From a virus: a DNA stretch of 64,000 nt. Positions 10,552 through 63,400 of this stretch are shown here, piece after piece. Numbering within the stretch: position 1 is the stretch's first letter; the number at the start of each line of letters is the position of its first letter. The position numbers and the translations under genes were made by a program. The notes beneath the pieces were generated by a model, which saw only the letters and a program-made list of their open reading frames with translations, searched no databases and was not told where the DNA came from. The DNA is taken from IMG/VR virus record IMGVR_UViG_3300037119_005846, positions 32,031 through 96,030 of that record; one strand, written 5' to 3'.

Positions 10552-12051
10552 GTGCCCGTGTCATCGCTGCAGCCTGTCTACCCGCCGCCGGCCGGCCGCG
10601 CCGTCGAGGCTCCGTGGGGCGTCGCCGTCGCCGAGAGCGTCGTCCAGCACTTCGCCAGCACGACTACTCGTGATACAAACTGGACGACGCCGCCTGTCGG
10701 CGCGCTCTGCGCGACTCAGAGCGACAAGTTTCTGTGGTACTTCGCCGGCGGCACCGTCCCGACCGGCTGGAAGAAGATCGCGCAGGTAGCTCTCGACGTT
10801 ACCCCGGTCGCAGCCGCCGCGGTACAGACCATCGGCGACACCATGACCGGCCCGCTGATCATTAATGCTACACCGGGTCTCAAGATACGCCGCAGCAACA
10901 ACTTGCCGTACTTGCAGTTCGAAGACGTCACTGGCGTTACTCGATACGGCTACGTCCAGGGCACGGCAGCGGACATGGTCTATTACGTCGATGCGGCGAC
11001 AGCCGATCACAGTTTCTGGGTCAATAACGCGCGGAAGCTGGAGATCAACAGCACTAACACTGACGTCTGGACAACGCTCACCGCACACCAGAGTATCGAC
11101 GTTACGAGTGGTATTGATGTGAACGGCGGCGGCGTGCGCATCGGCGGCAACGGCGCCCAGCTCAAACTGATTGACACGTCGACGTCCGCGTCTGACTTCC
11201 ACGACACCTACATCGAGTTCTTCGGCGACGGCGTGTCGATGGCGTCGCCTGGCACCCGGTCCGGCTACGTCGGGTTCCCCGGTAGCACGACGATGTACAT
11301 GAACAACGAAGTCCTCAACGGAGGGATACGACTTCAAGGCAATGGGTCGGGCACGGTCACCCTCGCGACCGGCACCAGCGGCGACATCAACATGTTGTGT
11401 GGGTCGGCCGGCAACATCTTGCTGAACGCGGCCACCTGGGGCGTGATGTCTTCGGGAGGTGCCGAGCGCGGCCGTTGGGGTTCGACGTTCATGTGGGGCA
11501 AGACGAGCAGTGGTCACGGCAACGTTGGTTGCGAGTTGTTCGAGTCCGGGGTGATCTACGCGACGACGGCGACCGCATCGTCGTGTCTGGTGCTGCGTCA
11601 CAACACTGACACCGATGGCGGCTCATTCATCCTGTTCCTCAACTCGGCCGGCGGTTCCCTGTCGACGCTCAGTCAAGATGACGTCGCCCCCACCGGCATC
11701 AAGATCAACAACTGCACGACGACCACCCCATCCGACTACCGGTTGAAGGACGACCTCGGCCCGATGGTCGGCGCCCTCGACCGGGTCCTCCAGCTGCAAC
11801 CAAAGCATCTGGCGTGGAAGGAGACCGGCGTCGAGTTCGACGGGTTCATCGCCCACGAACTGGCGACGGTGGTGCCGGACGCCGTAGACGGCGACAAGGA
11901 CGCCGTCTACGACGAAACCGAAGCCGAAATGATGGGCGTCCAACCGGGCGACATCAAAGCGCAGCAGCTCGACCAGACGCCGCTGATCCCGTTGCTGGTC
12001 GCCGCCGTTCAGGAACTCGCCGAGCGCCTCGCCGCGCTCGAAGATGCATGA
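10552..12051 (+). CDS. Tail fibre/spike with C-terminal intramolecular chaperone (peptidase S74)
   Basis: Gly/Thr-rich beta body, S-D cleavage motif PSDYRLKD, GFIAHEL, terminal LVAAVQEL coiled coil. Confidence 0.9.
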   Translation: MPVSSLQPVYPPPAGRAVEAPWGVAVAESVVQHFASTTTRDTNWTTPPVGALCATQSDKFLWYFAGGTVPTGWKKIAQVALDVTPVAAAAVQTIGDTMTGPLIINATPGLKIRRSNNLPYLQFEDVTGVTRYGYVQGTAADMVYYVDAATADHSFWVNNARKLEINSTNTDVWTTLTAHQSIDVTSGIDVNGGGVRIGGNGAQLKLIDTSTSASDFHDTYIEFFGDGVSMASPGTRSGYVGFPGSTTMYMNNEVLNGGIRLQGNGSGTVTLATGTSGDINMLCGSAGNILLNAATWGVMSSGGAERGRWGSTFMWGKTSSGHGNVGCELFESGVIYATTATASSCLVLRHNTDTDGGSFILFLNSAGGSLSTLSQDDVAPTGIKINNCTTTTPSDYRLKDDLGPMVGALDRVLQLQPKHLAWKETGVEFDGFIAHELATVVPDAVDGDKDAVYDETEAEMMGVQPGDIKAQQLDQTPLIPLLVAAVQELAERLAALEDA

Positions 12052-13189: not shown

Positions 13190-13371
13190 GTGATGAACCA
13201 GAAGTAGTCGAAGATGACTCCGAAGAGGTCGACTTCGAGATCGACTTGGACGCCGTGCCCGAGATGACGGGAGGGCGCTTTCCCGAGGAACTCGAGGAGC
13301 ATCTCTCCGATCCCGTCGAGGAAGGCGAAGTGCCCGAGGTCGATGGGTCAGAAGAAGATGAGGTCGACTGA
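13186..13371 (+). CDS. Very acidic small protein
   Basis: 61 aa, D/E-rich, coupled to both lysin genes. Confidence 0.7.
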   Translation: MSDEPEVVEDDSEEVDFEIDLDAVPEMTGGRFPEELEEHLSDPVEEGEVPEVDGSEEDEVD

Positions 13372-14231
13372 TGGCGATCCTGTATCCATTCGGCTACGGC
13401 GACTGGGCGGCTCGGGTCACACTCGACACGCTGTTCGAGAAGGAGACGGTCCGCAAGCTGCACCCCGAGTACCGGCGACGACTCAAGTCCTTGCTCGTCA
13501 AGGGTGGCGGTCGCTTCGGCATCGGCACCGGATGGCGCTCGTCGGACGTGCAGAAGTCGATCTTCCTCGCTCGTCACTACAAGGTCGCCTCGGGCGGGTG
13601 CTGCCGCTACGGCAACGCCCGCTACCAACTCAAGAAGGGCGTCGCCCACGCAGCTCCGCCTGGATCGAGCTTCCACGAAGCGGTCGTGCACGGCTGGGCC
13701 AGTGCCATTGATGCGATCGGTGACATCAACTGGTTGGCGCAGAACTGCGAGGCGTACGGCCTTGAGCAGGCGACGTGGGGGAACGAGGACTGGCACTACC
13801 AGTTCACCGAGTTCCCGCACTCGGTAACGCAGTGGCGTGCAGCTGGTCAGCCCGCTCCGAAGACGTGGTCAATCCCGGGCGTGCAGCCGCCGGTCGGCCC
13901 GCCGACTACCGGCTGGGCTGCCGCGGGAGCGAAGATGAGCACGCCGCCGGGCACGCCGACGCTGCGTCGCACGGTCCAGCACAGCAACGTGCCGTGGCTT
14001 CAGGCGGTGATGTGCTCGATGCCGAAGCCGCCGGCAGACGGTGGCAAGCCGATCTATCCGCCGACCCGCGTCACGTCCGACCGGATCGGCGCTGGTCCCG
14101 TCGACGGCGACTTGTTCGGTGATCTGACGTACGAGGCCGTGCGCTACTGGCAGTCGAAGAACGCGCTCACCGCGGATGGCATCTACGGGCCGCAAACGGC
14201 GGCGAAGCTGACCACAGTTCGCGGCAAGTAA
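13371..14231 (+). CDS. Endolysin 2: M15-family zinc peptidase with PG_binding_1 domain
   Basis: GWRS..Q, APPGSSFHE, AID, EDWH, and C-terminal T..AVRYWQ....LTADGIYGPQT. Confidence 0.85.
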   Translation: MAILYPFGYGDWAARVTLDTLFEKETVRKLHPEYRRRLKSLLVKGGGRFGIGTGWRSSDVQKSIFLARHYKVASGGCCRYGNARYQLKKGVAHAAPPGSSFHEAVVHGWASAIDAIGDINWLAQNCEAYGLEQATWGNEDWHYQFTEFPHSVTQWRAAGQPAPKTWSIPGVQPPVGPPTTGWAAAGAKMSTPPGTPTLRRTVQHSNVPWLQAVMCSMPKPPADGGKPIYPPTRVTSDRIGAGPVDGDLFGDLTYEAVRYWQSKNALTADGIYGPQTAAKLTTVRGK

Positions 14232-14762: not shown

Positions 14763-14969
14763 ATGAACCTCGCGGTCGTGGTCATGGGCGTCTGCGTCAC
14801 CTTCTGTTTCGCCGCGGCCGTGGCATTGTTCTTCATTGATCAGTCGGCTGCAGCGTGGGCAACTCTCGTCATCGCGCTGCTGTCTACGCTCTCGCTTCTC
14901 GCCATGGTCGTGTCGACCGGTCGCGCTGAGACGAGCGTCGCTGACATCAACTCGAGGCGGCGGCTGTGA
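14763..14969 (+). CDS. Two-TM membrane protein
   Basis: 68 aa, hydrophobic, TATAGT upstream. Confidence 0.65.
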   Translation: MNLAVVVMGVCVTFCFAAAVALFFIDQSAAAWATLVIALLSTLSLLAMVVSTGRAETSVADINSRRRL

Positions 14970-17218
14970 ATACTCTCACCGCGGCCGTCGCGTACGACGT
15001 CACCGATTCCGCGGTCAAGGCGGTCGAGAGCGCGTCACGCGTCGCCGACGAGAAGACCGCGAGCACTGCCGCGCTAGCGCTGGCGATCGCGATGGACTCC
15101 GAGAACGAAGAGTCTGCGAGAGTGGCGGTCCTTAAAGATCCGCGCATCGCTCGCCTCAGTCTCGAGGCGGCGCAGGCGATCAACGACGCCGCCGAGCTCG
15201 CGGCCTGGCATCCGTCGCCGGATACGGATGCCGCGGTCAGCGGCAGTGTCAAAGATGCACTGCGAACACGTCGAACCGATGCCGAGCTCGCTGACACGAT
15301 CCGGAGCACGGTCGCTGACGCAGCAGCGGCTAGACGCTCGACGGTTGAGACCGATGATGAGACGCCCGACGCCGAGTCACGCCGTCACTGGAGTGATGCC
15401 GCCGGGCGCACTGCCGCGACACGGCTGGCAGCTGAGCGAGTCGTTGAGTCCATGCCGGTCGTGGAAGAAGCCGCCGGTGTCTCGCTTCACAAGCTCTGGC
15501 TGACTCAGGCAGACAGCCGCGTCCGGTCAAGTCATCGTCATCTCCAGGGTAAGACCGTCGAAGCTGACAAGCCGTTCTGGCGCGAGCTCGGCACCGACAA
15601 GCAGCTGCGCTTCCCGGGCGACCCAGAGGCGCCGCTGGATCAGACCGTGAACTGCCGGTGCTTCTTGTGGCTCGTCCCCGCGGACCAGGCGGCGGCCGCC
15701 GAGGAAACGTTCCAGATCAGTGACGATGACTACGCACTCGCTGCGTCTGTTAGTCGCCATCCGTCATGCGGGCTGCTACACGGAAATGCCGCGCTGATGA
15801 CAGTCGATGAATTCGACGGTGCGGCCGACATCCTGTACGGTCTGACAGCAGCGACCGAGCGCAAGTACGACGAGAGCAAGCACAAGCGCGACAAGGGCGG
15901 CAAGTTCTCGAAGCATGCCGGCCAGCAGGGCGGCACAGTTCACGAGCACAAGCGCTTCGATCGCAAGAAGTGGCTCGCCGAGGGTGGCTGGGACAGGGTC
16001 AGAGCCAAGTACGGTCTCGGCAAGGGCAAGGGCAAGGGCAAGGGCTCTGGCTCCGGCTCTGGCTCCGGCTCCGGCGGCGGAGACAGCGGCAGTGGAGACG
16101 ACGTCGACGCGGGCAAGGCCTTTGACGACGCCGCCGAGCGTGCTCGCAAGCGCTTCGAGACAATACAGAAGGCTCTTCAAGATCGCAGAGATGAGATCGA
16201 GAACACTCGAGCATCGAACGAGGCTGATAGAAGGCAGCTTCAGGCGCAGGCCGACCTCGAGCAGATCACGCGGCGCGAGGGCGAGGACGCCGCGATGAGG
16301 AAGCGGGAGCAGATGGTCCGAGACGTTGAGCAAGATCTGCGCAAGCACCAGAGTGACGTCGAGCGGTCGCAGAACTTGATCCTCGGCATGCGCCTCCGCG
16401 GCGAGCTGCCGGACGTGATCGAGGCCGAGCGTCAGAAGCTCCTCCGGCTCAAGGGTGAGACGACCGAGCTGGTCAATCTCAGTCGCTCGCTCGGCACTCC
16501 CGACCAGGTGCGCGACCTGCGCGATCGCGTCCGCTCGAGTCGCCGCATTCAGGACGTCGGCACGCGGAACAATCGCGCGGACCTGGATCGTCGGATCAGA
16601 CTCGCGCAGCGCCGGCAAGATCAGGGCCTGCGAAACACTGAGCGCTCCGCGTCGCAGGACTACCAGAATCAGGTACGTGACTTGCGCGCTCGAGCGAACG
16701 AGGCGAGGAAGCAGGCGGCGGAGGCGAAGAGGGGTCGCCGCGCCTCGCTGGTTGGCGGCGGACACGCGGACTCACCGCAGTCATGTGTCATCGCGCTCAT
16801 TCCGAAGGGCCACAAGGAGATCGAGTACGAGTCCGGCGAGAAGGCTCCGGCACATCTGACGCTGGCATACCTCAGTGACGGCAGCGACAACATCGAGGAT
16901 GACTTTGACGCGATCGACGCGGCCGTTGCGCGCTTCGCTGCGAGTCGTCAGCCGTTCACCGTGACTGTCGCCGGTCGAGCTAACCTTGGCGAAGATGGAG
17001 ATGACGTCATCATCGTTGAGGCGTCGGAGCTCGCTGAGGCGCGGGCCTGGGCGGAAAGTGAGCCGGGCATCAGCGAACGCTGCGCTGCCAGTGATCACCC
17101 GCACTGGATTCCGCACATGACTGGCGTCGACGGTGACTACGGCGACGAGGTCGAGTTCGATCGCATCGGCGCGTGGTACGGCGACGACAAGCGAGAGTAC
17201 CCGCTCGGCGGCGGGTAA
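14966..17218 (+). CDS. MuF-like minor head protein fused to an HPR-like tag, coiled coil and C-terminal 2H phosphoesterase
   Basis: K.W....D.RVR.SH, L.FPGDP, VNCRC (MuF), then YDESKHKRDKGGKF, then two HxT motifs (AHLTLAYL, PHMT). Confidence 0.85.
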   Translation: MNTLTAAVAYDVTDSAVKAVESASRVADEKTASTAALALAIAMDSENEESARVAVLKDPRIARLSLEAAQAINDAAELAAWHPSPDTDAAVSGSVKDALRTRRTDAELADTIRSTVADAAAARRSTVETDDETPDAESRRHWSDAAGRTAATRLAAERVVESMPVVEEAAGVSLHKLWLTQADSRVRSSHRHLQGKTVEADKPFWRELGTDKQLRFPGDPEAPLDQTVNCRCFLWLVPADQAAAAEETFQISDDDYALAASVSRHPSCGLLHGNAALMTVDEFDGAADILYGLTAATERKYDESKHKRDKGGKFSKHAGQQGGTVHEHKRFDRKKWLAEGGWDRVRAKYGLGKGKGKGKGSGSGSGSGSGGGDSGSGDDVDAGKAFDDAAERARKRFETIQKALQDRRDEIENTRASNEADRRQLQAQADLEQITRREGEDAAMRKREQMVRDVEQDLRKHQSDVERSQNLILGMRLRGELPDVIEAERQKLLRLKGETTELVNLSRSLGTPDQVRDLRDRVRSSRRIQDVGTRNNRADLDRRIRLAQRRQDQGLRNTERSASQDYQNQVRDLRARANEARKQAAEAKRGRRASLVGGGHADSPQSCVIALIPKGHKEIEYESGEKAPAHLTLAYLSDGSDNIEDDFDAIDAAVARFAASRQPFTVTVAGRANLGEDGDDVIIVEASELAEARAWAESEPGISERCAASDHPHWIPHMTGVDGDYGDEVEFDRIGAWYGDDKREYPLGGG

Positions 17219-17227
17219 GATCGAAGC

Positions 17228-18025
17228 ATGAGCGCCGTCGAGAGCGAGCAGACCACGCCGCCGGCAGAAGACAAGCGAGTCAGCGCCGACGGCGACGACC
17301 GCCGTGATCGCGCCGTCAGCTCGTCCGGCTTCTACGCGTGGCTCGCCAAGTACGCCGACGATCGGTACAGCCCCCTGAAGGAGAAGCTCGACCGCAAGGC
17401 GCAGAGAGCTGTGCTCGGTGCGACGTTCAGTCGCGAGAAGATCGCCGCCTATCTCGAGTACGACGAAGACCTCATGACTCTGCTGACCAACGCGGAGATG
17501 GAGTGGCGCGCCGACATGGTCGCGAAGGACGGCCTCAAGGCGCACATGGAGGTCGACACCAGTCCACGCTATGACTTCCGCGATCCGACGATGAGACGCG
17601 CCCAGACATGTCGGTATCGCGGTGCGAGTGGCGTGTGCGGGAAGGGCGCCGTTCCGGGCACGGTTCGATGCGGCGAGCACGGCGGCGAGCTGGTCGATGA
17701 GGTGACGCGGCGAGCGATCCTCATGACGAGTTACTTGCAGATTGTCGAGGCCAGCGGTGTCGCCGTCGAGGCGCTGGTCGATGTCGCGCAGCACAGTCGC
17801 AACGACATCGCTCGAGTTGCCGCCGCGAAGGAGATTCTCGACCGCGCCGGCCTCACGGCAGATCTTCAGGTCACGGTGCACATCGAGGGAGACGAGCGCA
17901 ACGAGCGCATCTCGCGACTGCGGGACCGGCTCGACTCGATGCAGAAGGGACTTCAGAGCCGAGCGATCGACGCTGTCGCTCGCGAGGAGAACATCGTCGA
18001 CGCGGAGGTCGTCGCCGCGGGGTAA
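17228..18025 (+). CDS. Probable terminase small subunit
   Basis: C..C...RC..HGG zinc motif, AVEALVD...RVAAAKEILDRAG, located near the portal. Confidence 0.55.
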   Translation: MSAVESEQTTPPAEDKRVSADGDDRRDRAVSSSGFYAWLAKYADDRYSPLKEKLDRKAQRAVLGATFSREKIAAYLEYDEDLMTLLTNAEMEWRADMVAKDGLKAHMEVDTSPRYDFRDPTMRRAQTCRYRGASGVCGKGAVPGTVRCGEHGGELVDEVTRRAILMTSYLQIVEASGVAVEALVDVAQHSRNDIARVAAAKEILDRAGLTADLQVTVHIEGDERNERISRLRDRLDSMQKGLQSRAIDAVAREENIVDAEVVAAG

Positions 18026-18773: not shown

Positions 18774-20489
18774 GTGGCAGCACGACGGTTCTTCGATGAC
18801 TCGACTAATCTCGCGAGACAACCGTACGCGACACCGCGTCCGATCGTTGGCTCCGTCGAGCGACTGAATCTGAGCAAGGGCAGCGAGCGAGTCGAGAAGC
18901 GTGCCGTCAGCGCATGGCAGACGAGCGCGTGGCAGATGTTCGACGCCATCGGCGAAGTCCACTTCGCCTTCAGTCTGATCGCTCAGATCCTCAGTCGGGT
19001 CCGGATCTTCGCCGCGATCGTGCAGCATCAGGACGAGGCACCTGTCGACGTCAACGACTTTGTCAAGTCTCTTCAGGGCGACGCAGAAGTCGACGCTCCG
19101 AACACGCGCGAGGCCTGCGAAGAGGCGACCAAGATCCTTAACCAGCTCGTCCTCAACGCGCACGGCGGCATCAGCACGCTGCTCAGACTGATGGGGTTGA
19201 ACCTCTGCGTTCCCGGCGAGATGTACCTTCTCTACTTCAAGGATGAGTGGCACATCGCCAGCGTTGACGAGCTGACGCAGAGCGGCCAGACGCTGTACTA
19301 CCGGACGATGCGGACCTCTCCTAACACCGGCACCAAGGCAACAGCTGGTCGCGGCGAACCGCTGCCGAAGGACGCGTTCGTCGCGCGCATCTGGCGACCG
19401 CACCCACGGTACTCCGGCGAGCCGGACAGCTCGATGCTCGGAGTCCTTGATGACTGCGAACTGCTCGTCCTGCTCGAGCAGTCGATGAGGACGATCACGC
19501 GGAGCCGGATGAACGCCGGCGTGATGTTCATCCCCGAGGGACTCGCGTCGTTCGTTGCCGGCGACGAGGCAATGAGTGTCGAGGATGCGATCAGTCGAGC
19601 TAGCATCGAGAGTGTTGAGAACGAGACGGCTCAGGCGACCGTGGTGCCGCAGATTCTGAAGGGCCCGCCCGAGCTCGGCGACAAGATCAAGTGGATCCCG
19701 TATGGTCGGCAGATCGACCAGCAGTTCGTCGAACTCGTCGACAGGACGTTGCAACGCGTCCTTCAAGGGATCGACATTCCGAAGGAAGTCGTCTCCGGCC
19801 TCGCTGACGCGAAGTTCGCTAACGCGATCGTGATCACAGATGAGCTGTTCAAGGCGCATGTCGAGCCGCTCGTGCTCTTGTGTGTCGATGCACTGACGCA
19901 GGTCTATCTGAGGCCGCTGCTCAAGCGAGCACTCGGGATTGCTCCGGGCTCGGACGCGGACAGTGATGGCTCGAACATCGCTAACCGGATCATCATCTGG
20001 GCCGACACCGCCGGTATCGCTACGCGACCCGACAAGAGCCAGGCGGCGAACGACGGCTTCGACCGGAAGGTCCTCAGCGCCAAGGCGTGGCGTGACACGC
20101 GAGGGTTCACGGACTCCGACGCGCCAGAAGAAGAGGAGCTGCTGTTCCGCGTGGCGCTTCAGAGCGCGGTCATCCCGCCGGAGATCGTCGAGGCGGTGCT
20201 CAAGCGGATCGACCCGGCGTTCTTCGCAGCAGCTCGCGCGGCTAACTCGGAGATCCCACCGGAGATCGAGCAACTGCTCGAGCCGGTGCTCGGGCCACCA
20301 CCCGGCGAGGCACCATCAGCCGCCGGCGGGGCGGGCACTCGGCCGTCGTCTGGCACCACGGCGCCGCCGGTGAATCCAGCGCCGCCGGGGGCCGCGCCGC
20401 CGTCCGCGCTGACGACGCAGCTGAATGGCGCGGACATCAACACGAATGGCTCGAAGCCACCGCGAGCCGGCGAAGCGGCACTCCGCTAG
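18774..20489 (+). CDS. Portal protein
   Basis: WQ..AW..FD.IGEV, SR.R, RIWRPHP...EPDS, GIDIPKEV motifs typical of actinophage portals. Confidence 0.85.
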   Translation: MAARRFFDDSTNLARQPYATPRPIVGSVERLNLSKGSERVEKRAVSAWQTSAWQMFDAIGEVHFAFSLIAQILSRVRIFAAIVQHQDEAPVDVNDFVKSLQGDAEVDAPNTREACEEATKILNQLVLNAHGGISTLLRLMGLNLCVPGEMYLLYFKDEWHIASVDELTQSGQTLYYRTMRTSPNTGTKATAGRGEPLPKDAFVARIWRPHPRYSGEPDSSMLGVLDDCELLVLLEQSMRTITRSRMNAGVMFIPEGLASFVAGDEAMSVEDAISRASIESVENETAQATVVPQILKGPPELGDKIKWIPYGRQIDQQFVELVDRTLQRVLQGIDIPKEVVSGLADAKFANAIVITDELFKAHVEPLVLLCVDALTQVYLRPLLKRALGIAPGSDADSDGSNIANRIIIWADTAGIATRPDKSQAANDGFDRKVLSAKAWRDTRGFTDSDAPEEEELLFRVALQSAVIPPEIVEAVLKRIDPAFFAAARAANSEIPPEIEQLLEPVLGPPPGEAPSAAGGAGTRPSSGTTAPPVNPAPPGAAPPSALTTQLNGADINTNGSKPPRAGEAALR

Positions 20490-20874: not shown

Positions 20875-21087
20875 ATGAACGACCTGCGCAAGAGCAAGTT
20901 CGAGACCAAGGTAGCAGCGGCTGAGGCCGCCGTTGCCGCCGGCGCCAAGCTGTACGTCGGTGGACGACGTACCGTCGCCACTGCAGAGGAAGAAGGCGAG
21001 ACACGGGTGTATAACCTCGGCGGCGGTGAGGGCGCCTACCAGTGGCGCTGGCTGACCGCGCTGGATGATCCGAGTGGCATTCGGTAA
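20875..21087 (+). CDS. Hypothetical protein
   Basis: 70 aa. Confidence 0.6.
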   Translation: MNDLRKSKFETKVAAAEAAVAAGAKLYVGGRRTVATAEEEGETRVYNLGGGEGAYQWRWLTALDDPSGIR

Positions 21088-21155
21088 CATCACAATGTAT
21101 AATGACATCAGCCAGCCGGCGAACCCGGCTGGCACCAGGACTTCAGACACAGACA
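21075..21155 (+). promoter_or_regulatory. Class I promoter with a 5' hairpin and GACACAGAC leader
   Basis: TGGCAT-17bp-TATAAT (21098), 9-bp stem GCCAGCCGG/CCGGCTGGC at 21111-21133, motif at 21146. Confidence 0.8.
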
Positions 21156-21169
21156 AAGGAACCAACCCA

Positions 21170-21979
21170 ATGCACGCAACAGCCCCAGTGCCGAACCGAT
21201 CGACGTCATCGTTTGTCGTCTCCTTCGGCCTGATCAACATCCCGGTCAGCGTCTACACGACGGTGGCCGAGACCAAGGTCGCCCGCAAGGAGTTCACCGC
21301 GGACGGCCACGCCGTCGGCCGTAAGCCGTACGACAAGGAAACGGGCGCTGACGTCAACTTCGGTGACGTCGTCAAGATGGTCGAGGTCGGCGGCGCCACA
21401 GTGCCGCTGTCCGACGAGGAGATCGCTGGCGCGACCGGCCACGTCGCCGGTGTCGCGCCGATCGTCGGCCGCGTCTCGATGACCGAGCTCAACTCGGACT
21501 TCATTGCCGAGCGCGTCTACCAGCTTCGCCCGAAGAGCGACAAGAAGGTTCAGAAGGCGAGTGATCGCGCATTTGCGCTGCTGATCGCCACGCTGAAGGA
21601 GACAGACGAGGCCGCGCTGGTGCGAGTCAGCATCCGCGGCACTGTCGCCAAGTGGGGCGCGATCACACCGGACGGGTACCTCCGCATCATCCACAGCGCA
21701 GACCAGGTGAAGGCGGCGCTGCCAATGCCCGACGCGGTCGTCACCGAGAAGGAGACGGAGCTCGCCAAGGCACTCCTTGGCGCGATCCCGACACTGGCCG
21801 TGGAGGACCTCCGTGACGATTCCAGTGAGCGGATTGCCGCATACGTCGACGAGAAGCTGGCTGCTCTGGCTGGCACTGGCACACTGCTGACCGAGCCGAT
21901 GGCTCTGACGCCGGCCGCGGTCGATGACATGTTCGCAGCGCTTCAGGCAAGCATGGACGCCCTCGTGGCGAAAGGATGA
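21170..21979 (+). CDS. ku: Ku-like DNA end-binding protein
   Basis: SFGLINIPVSVY, D.VK..E, LSDEEI, E.ELAKAL motifs, AAAGGA RBS. Confidence 0.85.
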   Translation: MHATAPVPNRSTSSFVVSFGLINIPVSVYTTVAETKVARKEFTADGHAVGRKPYDKETGADVNFGDVVKMVEVGGATVPLSDEEIAGATGHVAGVAPIVGRVSMTELNSDFIAERVYQLRPKSDKKVQKASDRAFALLIATLKETDEAALVRVSIRGTVAKWGAITPDGYLRIIHSADQVKAALPMPDAVVTEKETELAKALLGAIPTLAVEDLRDDSSERIAAYVDEKLAALAGTGTLLTEPMALTPAAVDDMFAALQASMDALVAKG

Positions 21980-54693: not shown

Positions 54694-55304
54694 CGCAGCT
54701 ACATCACATTCACTACGTTCATGTAGCACTCGAAGCATATGGACCACTACCTCATCCATGCCACTTCTGCGAGCTTCCAGTCGTCCACTTGACGACGCGG
54801 CACCCACTAGGTGGTGTTGTTCATCATCTTGACGCGAACCGGGCTAATGACGATCCGTCGAATCTCGTGTTCGCGCACACCGCCTGTCACTCACGTCATC
54901 ATCAGACCGGGCGCAAATTGACCAAGGCGGCGAAAGCCAAGATCGGCGAGGCAGTCCGTGAGTGGAACAGCAAGCTCGAGAATCAGGAACGAAAGTCTCG
55001 TGGCATGAAGACAGCGCACGCAGACGGTAAGTTCACCACGATGTATGAGAAGGTTCGTCTGCGGTGGGCGGATCCAGAGATGCGACAGGCACAGTCAGAC
55101 CGACTTCGAATCTACGAGCCACGGGAGCTACTCACGAAGGAGCAGCGCGCTGAGATCTACCGAGACAATGGTGCACGCTACAGCGCGCATCTTCGATCTG
55201 GCATGTATGACGTTGACTGTCCGAACGGCTGCGGCAAGCGATGCGCTCCTGGTCCGATGGCCATACACGTCCGCGGCGGCCGGTGTCCTCTGAAGGCGAA
55301 ATGA
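54690..55304 (+). CDS. HNH endonuclease with NUMOD3-like helices
   Basis: C..C...VHHLD.NR.N....NL...H..CH. Confidence 0.8.
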   Translation: MTQLHHIHYVHVALEAYGPLPHPCHFCELPVVHLTTRHPLGGVVHHLDANRANDDPSNLVFAHTACHSRHHQTGRKLTKAAKAKIGEAVREWNSKLENQERKSRGMKTAHADGKFTTMYEKVRLRWADPEMRQAQSDRLRIYEPRELLTKEQRAEIYRDNGARYSAHLRSGMYDVDCPNGCGKRCAPGPMAIHVRGGRCPLKAK

Positions 55305-55327
55305 GCGACGAAGGTAGTATCCCGCCC

Positions 55328-58300
55328 ATGACTGACGTTGACGTCAATGCCGTCTCCGAACTGTACGCTACTTGGGAAAGAGAGCTAGCCCAGCTCGACC
55401 ACGAGCCTGATCCCGCGCTGATCGCGTCACTGGAGAGCCAGGCGCTCGACATGGGCGTCGACCTGTTCGACGTCTTCACGACGCTGACCGCGGCGTTCGA
55501 TCCGAGCCTCCATCCGCGCGGCAAGGACGGCAAGTTCATCGAGGTCGGCGGACTGATCCGCTTGTTCAATTTCTCGATCCAGGGCAAAGACGGCAAGCAG
55601 CACGACTTCAGCGGCCGTCGCGGCAAGGTCCTCGGCATCGACAAGGACCCGAAGAGCGACAAGCTGCCGCCGAACATCCGCGTCGGGCTGTACGACACGG
55701 ATGACATGAGCGGCCCGCCGAAGGCTGTCGTCACTGTCAAGCCGAACCACATCGAGAAGGCACCGGAGAAGGGTCGTCTGCCCAACGCGGAGTCGTATAA
55801 GGCGCCTGACGTCAAGATGCCGGGCGGCACGAACGATGTCATTCCGATGACGCCGACACCGCCGAAGTCCGAGAACCAGAAGCTGAACGACTCCGGCATG
55901 AAGTGGAACAGCAACCTTCAGCTCTACGAAACGCCGAATGGGACGAGCGGGTCGCAGATGAGCATCGACAATGTTGACAACAAGCCTCGCTACAGTGTGT
56001 TCCCGCCCGGTATATCTCGCTGGTCGACAGATCAGAGCGGCGTGCGACGGTACGACAACATCGATGACGCGTTAGCGAGCATCAACGAGCCGGCTACACC
56101 AGGTGCGAGTGCGCCGCCCCTGACGCCAGATGACCTCAACACGGTACCGGCGCCCGCGAGCTTCACACCGTCATCGAACATCACCAATGACTTCGTCGAG
56201 TACCCGGTCGGCTCCGGTGACGTGTACATGCTGACGCCGTTCAACGGCGGCGAGCGCTACCAGCTGACGCCGCAGAATCCCACGGCCGGCGAGCCGATCC
56301 AGAACCCGTACCTTGACGAGCTTAATCCGGACGAAGTCGCGAAGATCGACACTAGCGGTAGCGGTGGTGGCGGCGTTCCCAAGAACACGCCACCCTCTGG
56401 CTCGCAGTACGAGGAAGCTTCAGTACGCGCCGAGGGACTTCGCAACACCGGCATCTTCGATGACTGGTACGGCCGCGAGGCCGAGCTCGCCGACGGCAAG
56501 CTGTGGCTGTCGAAGGAGAAGTTCAACGCCGACGTCGACAAGGGCAAGTATGGCTCGGTCTCGGACGGTCAGCGCGAGGCACTTCGCCAGGCTTTGATGA
56601 ACCAGGCGGCTCAGGTCAATGCCGTGAATGAGGCCGACCTGAGCACTCAGAGCGCCGACTTCATGAACACTCAGCGCGCCAAGGCCGTGCCGTTCGACCA
56701 GGCCAAGAAGAACTCGATCGTGATGATCAACGAGAACGGCGTCGAGACTCCGTTCAAGGTTGAGGGCAAGCGCAACGGCAAGCTGTACGGCCATACGATG
56801 ACTCCTGATACCGCCGGCGAGGTGTATTACGACGACGGCCTGTCACCGAACGAGGCGTGGGGCGCGAGCGACATCGGCTTCGGTAGCGATGAAGAGACAG
56901 CCGACGACCTCAAGGATTACGGTCCGTACGCATTCAAGGATGGTGGCGGAAACGTTCTTCCGCCGATATCGCCCGAGATGCAAGCTAAGGCCGACAAGTT
57001 GATGGGTCCCAAGCCTGCCGCTGCGCCGAGCGCACCTGGTGGCGGCGGCGGCGGCCGTGAATGGCCGCCTCTTCCGTCCAGCCCCGACGATGACGATGCT
57101 ATCGCTTTGATGGACGAGGCGATTGATGCATTTATCACCGATTGGGCGCGTGAGCACAACGGTGAAGAAGTCGACAATATGGGCGCATCTGATATCGAGG
57201 ATGCGTTATTTGACGGTGCTATCGAATCCGGGCTCGACGCTGAGGCTCTTGACAGCATGACGGCATGGGACCCGCATGAGTACTACGACCGCTGGCGAAA
57301 CATCACAAATGACGGCACAGAAGTTCCTGGTGAAGGTCATGTCCCCGTAAGTGAACGTGAGCCTCTTGCGCCTGTACCTTCTGCTCCCGTCGGCGTGTCG
57401 ACGCCGTCCGCCAAGAGCGGCCCGGCGCAGCCGGGCGGCGGCAAGAGAACACCTGATGAGGTGCAGAAGATCGCAGACTTCATCGGAGCATCACCTGCCA
57501 CGACCGCGGATCTGCAAGAGTTCTACGGCACGAACGACCCTCAACGTCGTGCACAGCTTGGCAATAAGCTCAGCAAGCAAGTTGGCCCAGGAGCATGGGC
57601 CGACATCAACGATCCTGAGTATGTCGACAGCGTCGTTCTCAAGAACAAGCCCATCAAGTTCGTCGGGACGCCAGATGCCGCATCTGATCCCGTCGAGTCG
57701 CGCGGCGGCTTCGACCTCTGGGACAACGGCGCTGAAGGCTGGGCCGTCTACAGCTCTGACGGCGACCTCGTCGTCGCCGACACGACCGAGGCCAACGCTC
57801 GCTCCGTGTTCAACACGTCCGCGGGCAAGGATGGTGGCGGCACGCCGGCGTACGCACCGCTCGACAAGGCTCGTGTCGACGCGATCATTGATCACATCGG
57901 TGCTAAGGGAAAGATCGCGGCAGATCTCAGAGAGTTCTTCAGTACGACTGATCCGAAGCGCAAGGCGGCACTCGGTACCAGCCTCGACCAGCGAGTCGGT
58001 CCGGGAATCTGGAGCGATATCAATGATCCGGACTACGTCGACAACACCATCTTGAAAGGCAAGGGCACATCATTCGCCGACGTCGGCAATGCCGTCGCGA
58101 AGGGCGGGACCGGCGGAACGTTCAAGCCCGAGAACTACAACAAGATGAAGGCCGGCGACGCGGACACGTATCTGGCCGGCCTTACTCCCGAGAACCGCGC
58201 GGCGGCGATGGACTTCACCAAGAAGGACGTCCCGGCTCGCGCGAAGAAGTTCGACGACGCGAGCCTGCGAGCGACGTATGAAGCCGCGACCGATCCCGAC

Positions 58301-58945
58301 GTCAAGCGCGACCTGAAGATCGAGCTCGCGAGACGTGGCCTGCTTACCGAGGTGGACACGGTCGGGGGAGGTGAGGGCGCGGCACCGGCGGCGGAGGCGC
58401 CGGCCGTCCCTTTATCTGAGGCGCCGGCCGCGCCGGCGCCAGCGGCTCCTGCAGCCCCCGCGATGCGCAGCAGGGCGGCGATCCAGACCGAGCTCGACGA
58501 CGTCACGGCTCAGCTCGACAAGAAGTGGGGCGATCAGTTCGGCAACATGGGTCCAGGCGCGCAGAACATGCGCAACAATCTCATGAACAGGCGCAAGGCA
58601 CTCTACGCCGAACGCGACGCTGTCGACGCCAAGGAGACCGACGACCTTCGAACGTCACTGAAGACAGTGCAGCCGCACACCTATATCAAGCCACAGCACG
58701 ACTACGTTCGTCAGCAGTGGGAGATGTACTTCGCCGAGGAAGACAGCATGTACTCGCCCACTGACACGACGATCACGGCGCTTCTGCGTGACGCGATCAA
58801 GAAGCATCCGAACGATCCATACGTGACGATCGGTCCGCCGTCCGAGGCCGAGGTCCAGTTCCCGATGGCCGACGCTCGCATCCTCGCGTACACCAACCCG
58901 ACGATGGAGTACAGCCCACCGCCGGGACTGCCGGCGATAGTGTGA
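55328..58945 (+). CDS. Large multidomain protein with N-terminal HPR tag (putative head cargo)
   Basis: LTAAFDPSLHPRGKDGKFIE and an internal duplicated domain. Start moved to the ATG 8 nt after GGTAGTAT. Confidence 0.8.
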   Translation: MTDVDVNAVSELYATWERELAQLDHEPDPALIASLESQALDMGVDLFDVFTTLTAAFDPSLHPRGKDGKFIEVGGLIRLFNFSIQGKDGKQHDFSGRRGKVLGIDKDPKSDKLPPNIRVGLYDTDDMSGPPKAVVTVKPNHIEKAPEKGRLPNAESYKAPDVKMPGGTNDVIPMTPTPPKSENQKLNDSGMKWNSNLQLYETPNGTSGSQMSIDNVDNKPRYSVFPPGISRWSTDQSGVRRYDNIDDALASINEPATPGASAPPLTPDDLNTVPAPASFTPSSNITNDFVEYPVGSGDVYMLTPFNGGERYQLTPQNPTAGEPIQNPYLDELNPDEVAKIDTSGSGGGGVPKNTPPSGSQYEEASVRAEGLRNTGIFDDWYGREAELADGKLWLSKEKFNADVDKGKYGSVSDGQREALRQALMNQAAQVNAVNEADLSTQSADFMNTQRAKAVPFDQAKKNSIVMINENGVETPFKVEGKRNGKLYGHTMTPDTAGEVYYDDGLSPNEAWGASDIGFGSDEETADDLKDYGPYAFKDGGGNVLPPISPEMQAKADKLMGPKPAAAPSAPGGGGGGREWPPLPSSPDDDDAIALMDEAIDAFITDWAREHNGEEVDNMGASDIEDALFDGAIESGLDAEALDSMTAWDPHEYYDRWRNITNDGTEVPGEGHVPVSEREPLAPVPSAPVGVSTPSAKSGPAQPGGGKRTPDEVQKIADFIGASPATTADLQEFYGTNDPQRRAQLGNKLSKQVGPGAWADINDPEYVDSVVLKNKPIKFVGTPDAASDPVESRGGFDLWDNGAEGWAVYSSDGDLVVADTTEANARSVFNTSAGKDGGGTPAYAPLDKARVDAIIDHIGAKGKIAADLREFFSTTDPKRKAALGTSLDQRVGPGIWSDINDPDYVDNTILKGKGTSFADVGNAVAKGGTGGTFKPENYNKMKAGDADTYLAGLTPENRAAAMDFTKKDVPARAKKFDDASLRATYEAATDPDVKRDLKIELARRGLLTEVDTVGGGEGAAPAAEAPAVPLSEAPAAPAPAAPAAPAMRSRAAIQTELDDVTAQLDKKWGDQFGNMGPGAQNMRNNLMNRRKALYAERDAVDAKETDDLRTSLKTVQPHTYIKPQHDYVRQQWEMYFAEEDSMYSPTDTTITALLRDAIKKHPNDPYVTIGPPSEAEVQFPMADARILAYTNPTMEYSPPPGLPAIV

Positions 58946-58949
58946 GGTC

Positions 58950-60413
58950 ATGAGCGACAGCTTCGTCGTAGTACGACGCACTCGAGAGTACAAGCCGCTG
59001 GTTGCGGCCTTCAATCCGGACCTACATCCTCGCGGGCACGACGGCAAGTTCATCGAGAAGTTCGGTTTCATCAAGATCGTTGGTGGCTACGACAAGGGTA
59101 ACCATGGCCAGGTTGTAGACATCACTCCGGACAAGAGCAACCCCGGTCGGCCGGTCATCCACTACCGCCAGACTGATAATCGCGGCAACCAGATCGGCCC
59201 TCGTCTCGGAGCTACGCCGGATCAAGTCGAGTCGATTGACGAGAAGGCGCGTCTCAGCGGTCCACCCAGCGCGCGCCGTACTGAGATGGACGTAGACTTA
59301 GGGCCGGACACGAACCAGTCACCGTATGGGCAGCTGAACTTCGAAGCACCAGGGCAGGTGCCGAGATTCCCGGTGCCGCAGCCGCAGACGACGAGTCATG
59401 ACGCCGAGATTCCCGGCATTGGTAGCGTCGACGAGTACCTAGCCGCGAACCCGCAGCAGCCTGATGAGCCATTCTTCGAGTGGCAGTCTAGACTATGCGA
59501 TGGCCTTCCGCAGAAGTCGAGGCACGCGCTGACGTTCGAGACGAGAGAGCGCTACCCCAAGGTCGACTACATCGCCGAGGGCTCCGCGCGCTGGCGGGCC
59601 GAGCACGATCTTCCCGAGCCGAAAGTCGACCTGACCGAGGTGCCGGCGCCGCTGGAGAAGGCTGACGCCGTCGCTCGAGCGTTCGAAACCGCGGCTGATC
59701 AGAGCGACGACCCGCGAGTGCAGGCGGCATTCGCCGAGTTCAAGCGGCAGAACGACGAGATGTGGGACTTCGCGACTAGGCCCGAGTCAGAGGGCGGCCT
59801 CGGGATCAAGGTCGACTTCTGGACCAACCTGGACGAGACACAGTTCGGCGTAGGTCCGTATGCGGACGCGACCGCGCAGGCTGAAGACTTGCGCGCCAAC
59901 CATCACATCTACCTCGAGCACGGACTCGGCGGCGATCACGGCGCGACGATGACCGACGACGAGTACGACAGGTTCCGCGCGGTTCACGATATCTTCGGCC
60001 ATGCCGGCATCGGCGGCGGGTTCGACCGTCACGGCGAGTACCAGGCGTACCTCGCTCACTCGTCGATGTACGAGGGCGACGGCCGTCGTGCGATGGCGAG
60101 CGAGTACCACGGCGTCAACACCGCGGTCTGGGCGGGAGCGCCCGGCAGCCCGGGCACGGGCAAGTCGATCTTGCTTCCGGAGGAGCTGATCCCGAACCCG
60201 TTCGGGCCGACCGGCGACATCATCGCGGCGTCCGCGGTCCAGGTCCCGACGCCGGCGCAGCAGAAGGCGCTCGGCATCGACGCCGCTCACGCGGAATCGC
60301 TGGTCTACCTCGCGATGCAAGCGAACATCGAGCCGCCGTTCGCTCAGTGGTATGACGACCTGCCGCGACACCACTCGACGCCGCCAGAGGGAACAGAGCC
60401 CTACGCGGCCTAG
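58950..60413 (+). CDS. HPR-tag protein with an FRAVHDxxGH metallo-domain
   Basis: LVAAFNPDLHPRGHDGKFIE, FRAVHDIFGH...GE..A...H..MY. Confidence 0.8.
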   Translation: MSDSFVVVRRTREYKPLVAAFNPDLHPRGHDGKFIEKFGFIKIVGGYDKGNHGQVVDITPDKSNPGRPVIHYRQTDNRGNQIGPRLGATPDQVESIDEKARLSGPPSARRTEMDVDLGPDTNQSPYGQLNFEAPGQVPRFPVPQPQTTSHDAEIPGIGSVDEYLAANPQQPDEPFFEWQSRLCDGLPQKSRHALTFETRERYPKVDYIAEGSARWRAEHDLPEPKVDLTEVPAPLEKADAVARAFETAADQSDDPRVQAAFAEFKRQNDEMWDFATRPESEGGLGIKVDFWTNLDETQFGVGPYADATAQAEDLRANHHIYLEHGLGGDHGATMTDDEYDRFRAVHDIFGHAGIGGGFDRHGEYQAYLAHSSMYEGDGRRAMASEYHGVNTAVWAGAPGSPGTGKSILLPEELIPNPFGPTGDIIAASAVQVPTPAQQKALGIDAAHAESLVYLAMQANIEPPFAQWYDDLPRHHSTPPEGTEPYAA

Positions 60414-60429
60414 GCGGTAGTATCCGACT

Positions 60430-63400
60430 GTGATCACGGCAGACGATGACGTCCTCCTTGACATCGACGTCGTAGAGCTGTCACCAGCGGGCCTGCGTCA
60501 GCTTGAGGCAGCCCCCGTGAGCGTCCAGACTGCGTGGTACCAGAGGCGTCGTCGGGAGGCTCTAGCAGCCGCGGGGCTGGTCGGCGCATTCAATCCACTC
60601 CAGCCTCGAGGCAAGGATGGCAAGTGGATCGAGAAGTGGGGCTGGGTCCGCTGGCTGGAGAATGGCCAGTGGAAGCGCGGCCGTGTCACAGACATCGACA
60701 AGGACGGTAACTCAACAGTCACGGAGACGGCGACTAAGCAGCAGCGCAGCTTCGATCGGTTCGAGGCGCGCCGTCGCCTGTTCACGACGGCGAAGACGAA
60801 GGCGACGCTCGAGCTGCCGAGCCCCGGCGCGCACAAGGGCGCCGACGGCTTCACGCAGATCGGCGGGCAGGGCGGCTCCAACCCTGGCGCGCTGTACCAG
60901 GTGACCGACCAGGACGCGGTCAAGGGCAACCTCGCGCTGACGCCAAGCATGATGCGCGAGTCACTCAAGCTCAACAATGTCTCGCCGCACGACGTCAGCT
61001 TCAACGAGACGGACAGCGTCACAAGTGTTCAGTCGAAGATCGGTCAGCCGTCGATCTTCATTGACAAGTCGAACAACAAGGCGTATCTGAATCTCTCGGG
61101 CGGCGTCTTGTGGGATCTCGACACCGGCGACATAGCCGAGGTCGAGGAAGTGTTCGGACTGCCCGACACGCCGCGTCGCCACGACGTCCTCGGTCAGCTC
61201 GAGGTCTACGACCCCGGCGACGTCACCACGCAGACGAAGATCCTTCAGACGGCGCGGTCACTTGGCGTCGGCAGGCCGACAGTCGACACGAAGTTCTACG
61301 TCAAGACGTCGAAGTCGCCGGAGCACGCCCGCAACGAGGCGCTGGCCAACGACCTGTACGAGCTCGCCGGTGTCTCTGTCCCGAACGTCGCCGTCGGCAA
61401 GGACGGGAACACGATCTCGAGCGAGATCGTCACGGGCGACAGCGTCCAGCCGCTCTCGAACGTTCTCAGCGACCCTGACATCATGAAGCGAGTCCGCGAG
61501 GACTTCGTCATCGATGCGTGGCTCGCTAACTGGGACGTCGCCGGCCTCGGCCTCGACAACATGGTGATCGTCGACGGCCAGCCGTATCGGATCGACGCCG
61601 GCGGTGCGCTTCTGTATCGCGCTCAGGGCAACCCGAAGGGTAACAAGTTCGGGAATGAAGTCACCGAGCTCGACTCGCTGACGAATCCGAGCGTCAACCC
61701 GCAGGCGGCGAAAGTGTTCGGCAAGGTCACACCTGGTGAGATGGCCGATGGCGCTCAGCGCCTCGCGGCGATCAGCCCGCAGCAGATCATCAACGCGGTC
61801 GAGGCTCAGAACCTCGACAAGAGCCTCGCTGACAAGCTGATCGCGCGGCGCAAGTACATCCTCGACAAGACCGGCATCATCGAGCCCAAGGTCGACGACA
61901 TCCTTGAAGAGTTGCTCGACGAGGAGCCGCCGTCGACGCCGGTATTGCCGATTACGCCCGGTAACACTCTTGACGTCGGCACCGGCACTACGGTCTACGA
62001 CCCCAAGACGAAGTCACTCGTTCCTGGTACGGCACTGTCAGTCAGCGCGCAGAATGATCATGACGCCTTCATCACGAGTCACGTCGGGCCGCTCAAGGGA
62101 GATGGCATCGTCGGCGGCTACATAAACGGCGACAAGCTCGTTGTCTCGACTGACGGCAGCCTCTGGGAGGTCACGGGAGTAGAGCCAACATCGGGTACCG
62201 GCGGCTCGTACAATCTTAACATTCGTCACCTCGGCACGGGCGAGGTAAGCACGATGAACGTTTACGACGACACGACGTACTACGCGACGACTGATACGGA
62301 TGGCTCACTCGCAGCTGACTACGCTCCGGTCTATGATGACTTCCAGACGTATGCCGTGAACTCGTACACGAGCGTCAGCGACATGCTCAATGACGGATGG
62401 CGTCCTGAGCTGAAGACCGCGCCGACTCACAGTGGCGTGACGCTCAAGCCGGGTGACTGGATCATTCGCGGTTCAATCGCGTCTACCAAGCCGGGGGCGT
62501 ACAGGGTCGACAGTGTCGCGGACAACGGCTATGTGTACGCGACGAGCATGAGTGGTGAGAAGCTCGCGACCAAGCCCGGCTTCGACTGGCGTCAGGCCGG
62601 TCCCGGAACGATGGTGAATCAGACGCTGGACGCAATCAAGGCTCGCAACGACGCGGCGGCGCACGCTGACATTCTAGCTGGATATAGCGATGGAATAAAG
62701 ACCGCGTACACGCCGAGCGACCAGACGCTAGCGAAACTGAACGCGTCGACGCCCACGCCGCCGAATCCTGCCGTGACGCCGGTAGTCGTAGACCCGGACA
62801 CGCTCGAGACTCACTTCGACCCGGAGACCGGGATCAACGAGAGCCTGAAGGTGCTCGGCGATCCCGTCCCTGTAACTGAACTCAAGAACCAGAACCCGGA
62901 CGACTGGGTCGGCAAGTGGGTCTACGTCCGCAAGTCGATCGAGCCAAAAGCCGACTGGAAGGGCTACAAGGCGTCGGGCGATCAGGGGATGTTCAAGATC
63001 GCGGGTGACGACTGGTCCGGCGGTTACGGTGTCTGGGCTTACGACTCGACTGGACTGAAGCAGAAGATCGACCCGTATGGCAACGAGGTCATGTTGATTG
63101 ACGGTGAGATTCCGCCGGTCGTCAACCTCCAGTTCAAGAAGGATCACACGATCGCGGTCAACGGTCATCGCGTTGGCTCGTGGAGCGGCAGCGGTGATCA
63201 CTGGTATCACGACTACAAGGTTCAGCTCGATCCTGACTACACGGTCAGTGGCCAGGTGTTCCGCGCGAAGGTCGGCCAGAAGGCGGCGATGCGCACGATC
63301 ATCGTGCCAATGCTCATGCCGCACAGCGTCGGCGGCAGCAAGGACAAGTCGACCGCCTCGATCGAGCTCGAGCACGCGGTCCGCGCCGACGTCGAGTTCG

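Follow-up and report, generated by a model that had tools for sequence, protein, structure and literature searches.

Why would a phage carry a phosphodiesterase on the end of one of its head proteins? The question is raised by a single gene at 14966-17218 (+) of the window, by which we mean the whole stretch of 64,000 nucleotides that was analysed. The window covers bases 32031-96030 of the metagenomic IMG/VR record IMGVR_UViG_3300037119_005846, which is 96,030 bp long and 95% complete according to CheckV. The gene joins a MuF domain to a C-terminal 2H phosphoesterase domain through a short junction tag, a glycine-rich linker and a helical spacer. We argue that the best explanation for this gene is a minor head protein, and that its product most likely ends up in the capsid and is delivered alongside the DNA. 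The overall reading is that of an active 2H phosphodiesterase which is anchored by MuF, packaged in the capsid and carried into the cell together with the DNA. We consider it probable, with real room for doubt. The parts of the gene are as follows (ORF, open reading frame; aa, amino acids; pLDDT, predicted local distance difference test).

14966..17218, +, whole gene: MuF - tag - linker - helical spacer - 2H phosphoesterase (P0001), 750 aa; from the ORF list and its translation
16781..17215, +, 2H phosphoesterase domain, aa 606-750; from Pfam PF13563, AlphaFold, Foldseek and VIA-align
16853..16861, +, first catalytic motif, H630-L-T632; H and T columns near-invariant in 30 homologues
17114..17122, +, second catalytic motif, H717-M-T719, within HPHWIPHMT; P128 and H133 (domain numbering) invariant
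14966..15448, +, alanine-rich helical N-terminal region, aa 1-161, ahead of the MuF core; low-confidence predicted helices
15449..15664, +, MuF (SPP1 gp7-like) core, aa 162-233, with H190, H192, C230 and C232; from Pfam PF04233
15842..15913, +, junction tag, aa 293-316, LTAA ... KHKRDKGGKFSK; diverged from the usual HPRGxDGKF form, from a regular-expression scan of the genome
16013..16102, +, glycine-rich low-complexity linker (GK)n(GS)n, aa 350-379; from the translation, with pLDDT below 50
16115..16744, +, charged, arginine-rich helical spacer of three helices, aa about 384-593; from AlphaFold and composition

Fold and family of the C-terminal domain

An earlier note on this DNA had pointed to a domain of ~145 aa with HLT at 16853 and HMT at 17114, and had read the pair of motifs as a 2H phosphoesterase. 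The domain is exactly as described, and the fold is borne out by structure prediction. A model of the domain made by AlphaFold from an alignment of 30 homologues has a pLDDT of 87.4 and a predicted template modelling score of 0.82. The 45 best VIA-align entries are all 2H proteins, and Foldseek agrees. The best match is the LigT-like TT0787 of T. thermophilus (Z 12.8 over 138 residues, root-mean-square deviation 3.4). It is followed by YjcG (12.0), PH0099 and the plant cyclic phosphodiesterase (CPDase; both 11.9), Usb1 (11.5) and E. coli LigT (about 11). The rotavirus VP3 phosphodiesterase scores 10.6, the Burkholderia phage BCSR5 phosphodiesterase (PDB 9q2g, on which we found no literature) 8.8, Acb1 (7t26) 8.2 and the penguinpox cyclic GMP-AMP (cGAMP) phosphodiesterase 8.1. 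The predicted model confirms the C-terminal domain as a genuine 2H phosphoesterase with an intact HxT/HxT catalytic tetrad.

Sequence profiles lead to the same superfamily. Pfam 2_5_RNA_ligase2 (PF13563) matches aa 625-719 with 32.4 bits in the whole protein and 35.1 in the isolated domain, where the cut-off is 27. LigT_PEase (PF02834, cut-off 23.3) reaches 24.9 bits on the isolated domain and 22.2 on the whole protein, with only the first lobe aligned. PHROG families annotated 'RNA ligase' and 'head maturation protease' also match the domain. A family profile run against the PDB matches 2H proteins exclusively, if weakly (PH0099 at 6e-5, penguinpox phosphodiesterase at 1e-3, Acb1 at 7e-3). 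A phmmer search of the PDB sequences with the single domain sequence gave zero meaningful matches, and NCBIfam and PADLOC searches returned no significant family.

Both HxT motifs are conserved across the 30 short and 60 long homologues that were aligned, and the histidine of motif 1 is invariant in the 60 long ones. Motif 2 reads HP-x-W-x-PH-x-T in the 30 short homologues, with the P and H invariant. The same sequences share an LG-x-D turn and an FDR-x-x-x-W strand. The catalytic H and T are conserved across the homologues, and we therefore argue that there has been selection on enzyme activity. The clade is probably active as an enzyme, to judge from these alignments. A catalytically dead 2H fold could have been reused as a head-internal spacer or binding module, and inactive 2H folds do occur among the structural matches (mitoribosomal and AKAP7-like, for example). 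However, both motifs are intact and near-invariant across the family, so we regard a dead domain as hardly credible.

Is the domain related to Acb1, as the 'Acb1-like' label in the earlier note would have it? Acb1 is the nuclease with which phage T4 (57B) and Erwinia phage FBB1 counter CBASS, a signalling system against phages that is based on cyclic oligonucleotides. It was defined biochemically by Hobbs et al. 2022 (PMC9117128), where its C-terminal lid is also described. There is a likeness. Both are phage-encoded 2H folds of ~150 aa with an HxT/HxT tetrad, and the second motif, P-x-[WY]-x-PH-[IVM]-T, aligns. A closer comparison does not support the label, though. Pfam Acb1 (PF23474) is unmatched at E <= 1 by the whole protein and by the isolated domain, and only 2 of the 60 long relatives match it. 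The Z score of 8.2 compares with 11-12.8 for LigT-type enzymes, CPDase and Usb1, and VP3 ranks above Acb1 as well. An hhalign comparison with T4 Acb1 (probability 62%) covers 38 columns and the second motif only. The predicted chain ends 4 residues past its last strand and has no visible Acb1-type lid. Acb1 is also a free cytoplasmic protein; a MuF fusion is not reported in PMC9117128, and the words 'virion' and 'packaged' are absent from its text.

The best structural matches are instead the LigT/ThpR types (E. coli ThpR, T. thermophilus TT0787, B. subtilis YjcG), at Z 11-12.8 over 128-138 residues and with the same tetrad. Here hhalign to E. coli ThpR (probability 75%) spans 118 columns and both motifs. 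The second motif aligns to the PHIT/PHVT motifs of Acb1, the penguinpox enzyme and ThpR alike. Identity to the LigT/ThpR types is only 14-20%, however, and the domain has about 145 aa where they have 170-185. Its clade has a Y-x-D/S-G hairpin of its own before motif 1, and it is fused to a virion protein without an RNA-repair context. The domain is a distinct actinophage clade of the 2H superfamily, apparently outside the Acb1 family.

The MuF module and carriage in the virion

In SPP1, a few copies of gp7 are packaged; the protein binds to the portal and exits with the DNA. C-terminal effector domains are common on MuF proteins, as in the MuF-linked polymorphic toxins. In the mechanism that we propose, the N-terminal MuF module would dock the protein to the portal or procapsid, and each virion would hold a few copies. 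The cargo at the C-terminus would be an active 2H phosphodiesterase that needs no metal, and it would lie inside the capsid. It would leave with the DNA and so reach the host cell ahead of all phage gene expression.

The MuF domain that had been claimed for this protein is present at aa 162-233. Pfam Phage_Mu_F (PF04233) matches there with an E value of 4.7e-6 and 27.7 bits on the whole protein, and with 32.3 bits in a six-frame search of the genome; the cut-off is 29.6. In the N-terminal half, PHROG head-morphogenesis families give E values of 1.4e-18 and 1.6e-16; the alignments to these and to the portal-fusion profiles run from about aa 50-85 onward. The core shows a D..VR..H...PGD...NCRC signature. 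Its putative zinc motif is the cluster H190, H192 ... C230-R-C232, in which H190, C230 and C232 alone are invariant in 4 orthologues. A genome-wide profile search finds the MuF and 2H domains in single copy each in the 96-kb record, both in this gene. Thus a Phage_Mu_F domain is present and it is found in a head module with the portal, as is expected of the MuF family. With SPP1 gp7 and Mu gp30 it shares the conserved signature of the MuF core and the location of the gene close to that for the portal. The gene is positioned between lysis genes and the portal.

10552-12051, +, tail fibre gene; from neighbour annotation
13371-14231, +, endolysin gene; from neighbour annotation
18774..20489, +, portal gene (571 aa), the presumed docking partner of MuF; from phrog_776 portal at E 1.1e-84

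On this strand, the start of the portal gene is 1.5 kb further downstream. Binding of the protein to the portal is presumed. A complex prediction between the portal (571 aa) and aa 60-270 of the MuF part scored 0.01, which counts neither for nor against binding. The portal is 37-39% identical to those of the Gordonia phages Phendrix, GodonK and GMA2, which are large siphoviruses. A megablast search with the 14966-17218 gene gave zero matches among 50,697 phage records. Because the portal's kin are Gordonia siphoviruses and related actinophages and the megablast search was empty, the source is probably an uncultured actinobacteriophage without a close sequenced relative. The G+C content of the window is ~64%.

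How often does the 2H clade occur with head genes? An exhaustive HMMER search with aa 585-750 gave 237 representative clusters at E <= 1e-3. MuF is in the same chain in about a third of the representative homologues (54 of 149), and the order is MuF then 2H in 53 of these 54. Among 60 long homologues Pfam finds PF13563 in 43, MuF in 31 and the S78 prohead protease in 2. With tblastn the 2H domain is found in 75 actinophage records, always in head genes, and either inside a 'capsid maturation protease and MuF-like fusion protein' or next to MuF in a separate gene. The actinophage genes under this name or annotated 'RNA ligase' have the same 2H clade (30-35% identity by tblastn, hmmsearch E 8.5e-51 to 6e-8) and the same head-gene neighbourhood as ours, but their layouts differ. 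In Microbacterium phage Fizzles the order is MuF-2H-protease (gp23, 1065 aa, carries that fusion-protein name and has MuF at 122-183 and 2H at 214-380). Gordonia phage Lilbeanie has MuF in gp15 and a C-terminal 2H domain in gp16, and in GMA2 the two are also separate genes. Rhodococcus phage ReqiPepy6 gp013 has its 2H domain at the N-terminus; the gene comes after tail-fibre and lysis genes, as here. In actinophages this 2H clade is found time and again with MuF, portal and prohead-protease modules, either fused to them or in a gene beside them.

The strongest support for virion carriage comes from GMA2, and it is indirect for the phage studied here. GMA2 Orf10 has 883 aa, lies directly after the portal and has a 2H domain of the same family at aa 723-874. 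It was identified by mass spectrometry of purified virions with 29.4% coverage (Dyson et al. 2015, PMC4524720 Table S5). We mapped six short peptide fragments from that work onto Orf10. One of them contains ..YTPHITAV.. and covers the second HxT motif of the 2H domain. So a homologous 2H domain is physically present in the particles of a phage whose portal is 37% identical. The suggestion that the enzyme is carried in the virion thus has indirect experimental support, by homology.

The fusion could also have a function that does not involve injection. It might serve assembly, with the 2H domain cut off by the maturation protease and lost, or it might act only in the cytoplasm late in infection, damping abortive-infection signals in the producing cell. 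Many relatives place 2H between MuF and a prohead protease in one polyprotein, which makes processing likely. The conserved LTAA...HKRD junction could be a cleavage site, and a late-expressed enzyme is present in the cytoplasm anyway. However, the GMA2 virion peptide is from inside the 2H domain, so in that phage the domain stays in purified particles. An ordered and recurrent fusion to MuF (53/54) is also hard to explain by co-expression alone. We argue that a fusion without injection is improbable.

Several points do weigh against a packaged and injected enzyme. The whole-protein MuF score is slightly below the Pfam cut-off, and the NCBIfam model for SPP1 gp7 is unmatched (E 0.75). The support for this reading in the present phage comes from gene content, predicted structure and homology. 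CBASS-type signals usually arise in mid-infection, so a pre-packaged enzyme is not obviously needed. By VIA-align the fold lies nearer to LigT, CPDase and Usb1 than to the enzymes proven to degrade signals, namely Acb1 and the cGAMP phosphodiesterase of poxvirus. Lastly, late in infection the cytoplasm would contain the enzyme as well, and it could act there without injection being required.

The concept of this fusion has been in print since 2017, and our gene is a further example. Iyer et al. 2017 (PMC5512222, section 20, Fig. 5B) described 2H-MuF and 2H-portal fusions as head-packaged, injected counter-signalling enzymes, and the proposal was restated in Iyer et al. 2022 (PMC9503650, section 21). 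The role in both is a computational proposal, in which the enzyme is packaged, injected and then either degrades nucleotide signals or acts as an RNase. What marks a head-packaged effector in Iyer et al. 2017, an effector domain fused to MuF in a late-gene context, is found here. Our gene has the same MuF-then-2H layout as that class, the same lack of an RNA-ligase partner and the same proposed role. It differs in its spacing: 360 aa separate MuF from the enzyme, and a tag, a Gly linker and long helices lie in between. The additions here are the GMA2 virion peptide, the unusual 325-361-aa spacer with its junction tag, and the RNA-repair genes that were not found. We found no bench test of a packaged 2H enzyme or of a MuF-phosphodiesterase in the literature.

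It is worth describing the MuF core of one homologue. P0014 has an insertion of ~330 aa (about aa 203-530) exactly at the second Cys of the NCRC motif. It begins C-V-A-L-D, includes ..TPEHPV..GW..L..GD.. and ends ..IVSN before a C. By eye it is intein-like. It has zero Pfam Hint or intein matches at E <= 1e-3, and the intein reading stays a visual impression.

Substrates of the enzyme

Suppose that the packaged-enzyme model is correct. What would the enzyme cleave? We give close to an even chance, within that model, to the cleavage of nucleotide second messengers of host immunity. The candidate signals would be cyclic di- and trinucleotides, cyclic oligoadenylates and 2'-5'-linked oligonucleotides. 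Like that of Acb1, VP3 and ns2, the cleavage would have a 2',3'-cyclic phosphate intermediate. The next most likely role within the same model, though less probable than not, is one on RNA: the enzyme would be a Usb1-like RNase or would act on ends with a 2',3'-cyclic phosphate. We give immune-signal degradation a somewhat higher weight than Usb1-like RNA action. Sequence and fold cannot decide between cyclic oligonucleotides, 2'-5' oligoadenylate and RNA 2',3'-cyclic phosphate ends as the substrate.

The alternative that the 2H domain acts on RNA and not on signalling nucleotides, whether packaged or in the late cytoplasm, deserves its own consideration. The domain could be a Usb1-like 3'-5' exoribonuclease or an RNase on host RNA. 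It could also be a 2',3'-cyclic phosphodiesterase that trims ends left by metal-independent RNases of the host, such as anticodon nucleases and HEPN effectors. The structural ranking speaks for this, with LigT-type 2',3'-cyclic phosphodiesterases, plant CPDase and Usb1 as the best matches (Z 11-12.8). So do the hhalign match to E. coli ThpR over both motifs (118 columns) and the LigT_PEase score above its cut-off on the isolated domain (24.9 vs 23.3 bits). With 19% Arg, the spacer next to the domain could be a nucleic-acid binder, and Iyer et al. 2017 (PMC5512222) judged the RNase option equally likely. Yet how well a fold ranks among 2H enzymes says little about its substrate.

The gene content does not complete a repair pathway either. 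RNA ligase (PF09414, PF09511) and RtcB (PF01139) are unmatched in the 96-kb record, and there are no tRNA genes in the window. A role in RNA repair is disfavoured because these were not found, and we rate that reading lower. Of the two activities that the earlier note offered, a cyclic-oligonucleotide-degrading enzyme and an RNA-end-healing one, the gene content thus speaks against the second; the 2H fold that underlay the suggestion is there. RtcB ligation is blocked rather than helped by a 2'-phosphate end, so opening a cyclic phosphate to a 2'-phosphate would hinder repair by the host RtcB. On balance we argue that action on RNA in place of signals is unlikely.

If the enzyme is delivered with the DNA, the host response would be disarmed before any phage gene is expressed. 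This timing differs from that of known free anti-signalling nucleases such as Acb1. The compact 145-aa domain has clear catalytic residues and should be easy to express and assay. The clade is also well populated with cultured, engineerable members among Microbacterium, Gordonia, Arthrobacter and Rhodococcus phages.

Spacer, junction tag and neighbouring genes

Between MuF and the enzyme lies a region that is unusual among the relatives. The gap is 325-361 aa in our protein (P0001) and in its nearest relatives, P0002 (42% identity) and P0004, and only these two share the long-spacer layout. It is at most 42 aa in 40 of the 53 relatives with MuF then 2H. A glycine-rich linker and an HPR-like tag had both been claimed for this region, and both are present. 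The linker, at aa 350-379, is (GK)4(GS)5GGGDSGSG. The tag, at aa 293-316, is conserved in orthologues.

The full-length AlphaFold model is poor overall (pLDDT 60.7, from an alignment of only 4 sequences). It nevertheless has helices at aa 377-478, 482-509 and 512-593 with pLDDT 75-91, about 215 aa in all. The composition is 43% charged, 19% Arg and only 19% hydrophobic. There is a modest excess of opposite charges at i/i+4. The heptad signal is weak, with an a/d occupancy of 0.42 against 0.36 +/- 0.02 in shuffles. The 'long charged coiled coil' of the earlier note is therefore half right: the long charged helices are predicted, and a true coiled coil is not supported. What the model shows is a spacer of long, charged helices that may form a hairpin or bundle and may bind nucleic acid.

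The tag reads L293-T-A-A ... K305-H-K-R-D-x-x-G-x-F-x-K316, and these residues are invariant or nearly so in the orthologues P0002, P0004 and P0014. It resembles the canonical form, ..AF-D/N-P-x-L-HPRG-x-DGKF-IE... The canonical tag comes directly after the 2H domain in several relatives, including proteins of 2800-3000 aa with an N-terminal 2H. From these positions it appears to behave as a junction module of head-associated proteins. Speculatively, it could be a cut site for the maturation protease or a docking site, and so free the cargo inside the head. The S78 prohead protease profile is unmatched in this genome.

The canonical tag also occurs elsewhere in the window, near the N-termini of three consecutive large ORFs at 55241-58945, 58950-60413 and 60430-64000 (+). 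It reads ..L(T/V)(A/G)AF(D/N)P..(H/Q)PRG.DGK(F/W)IE.. in these. They measure 1234 aa, 487 aa and more than 1190 aa. The three have zero Pfam matches, and the sole PHROG match is that of the second to phrog_3170, to which no function is assigned. In Gordonia phage Phendrix, the phage with the closest portal, the tag, as HPRGADGRW, is at residue 28 of gp66 (L008:8756-13195), a 1479-aa hypothetical protein encoded right after the portal that lacks a 2H or MuF domain.

Could the LTAA...H(P/K)R..G(K/R)F tag be a shared address or cleavage module of a capsid delivery system with several cargoes? We find this quite doubtful. If a prohead protease cuts at the tag, or the portal or capsid reads it, several ready-made effectors would be injected together by this phage. 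Released from MuF in the head, the 2H enzyme could, for example, destroy the messengers of type III CRISPR (clustered regularly interspaced short palindromic repeats) or CBASS systems from the onset of infection. The long-spacer layout together with a conserved junction tag may inform how cargo is positioned in the head or released from it.

The start of the gene and its immediate neighbours complete the description. The start codon is GTG, with GAGG 9 nt upstream, and it overlaps the stop of a 68-aa hydrophobic ORF (14763-14969, +) as GTGA. This ORF follows the lysis genes, and the overlap couples its translation to that of the MuF gene; it may encode a holin-like membrane protein. Directly 3' of the MuF-2H gene is a 265-aa ORF (17228-18025, +) that matches no Pfam or PHROG family and has a Cys-rich segment (C-x8-C ... 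C-x-x-H). Its place ahead of the portal suggests that it may have a packaging role or be small-terminase-like. A Ku-like DNA-end-binding protein (Pfam Ku, E 3.9e-19) is encoded shortly after the portal, at 21065-21979 (+). The gene order as a whole is unusual: tail fibre, endolysin, MuF-2H, portal, Ku and then replication genes (exonuclease, DNA polymerase A, SNF2 helicase, methyltransferase). ReqiPepy6 has a comparable order of tail fibre, lysis, 2H gene and terminase.

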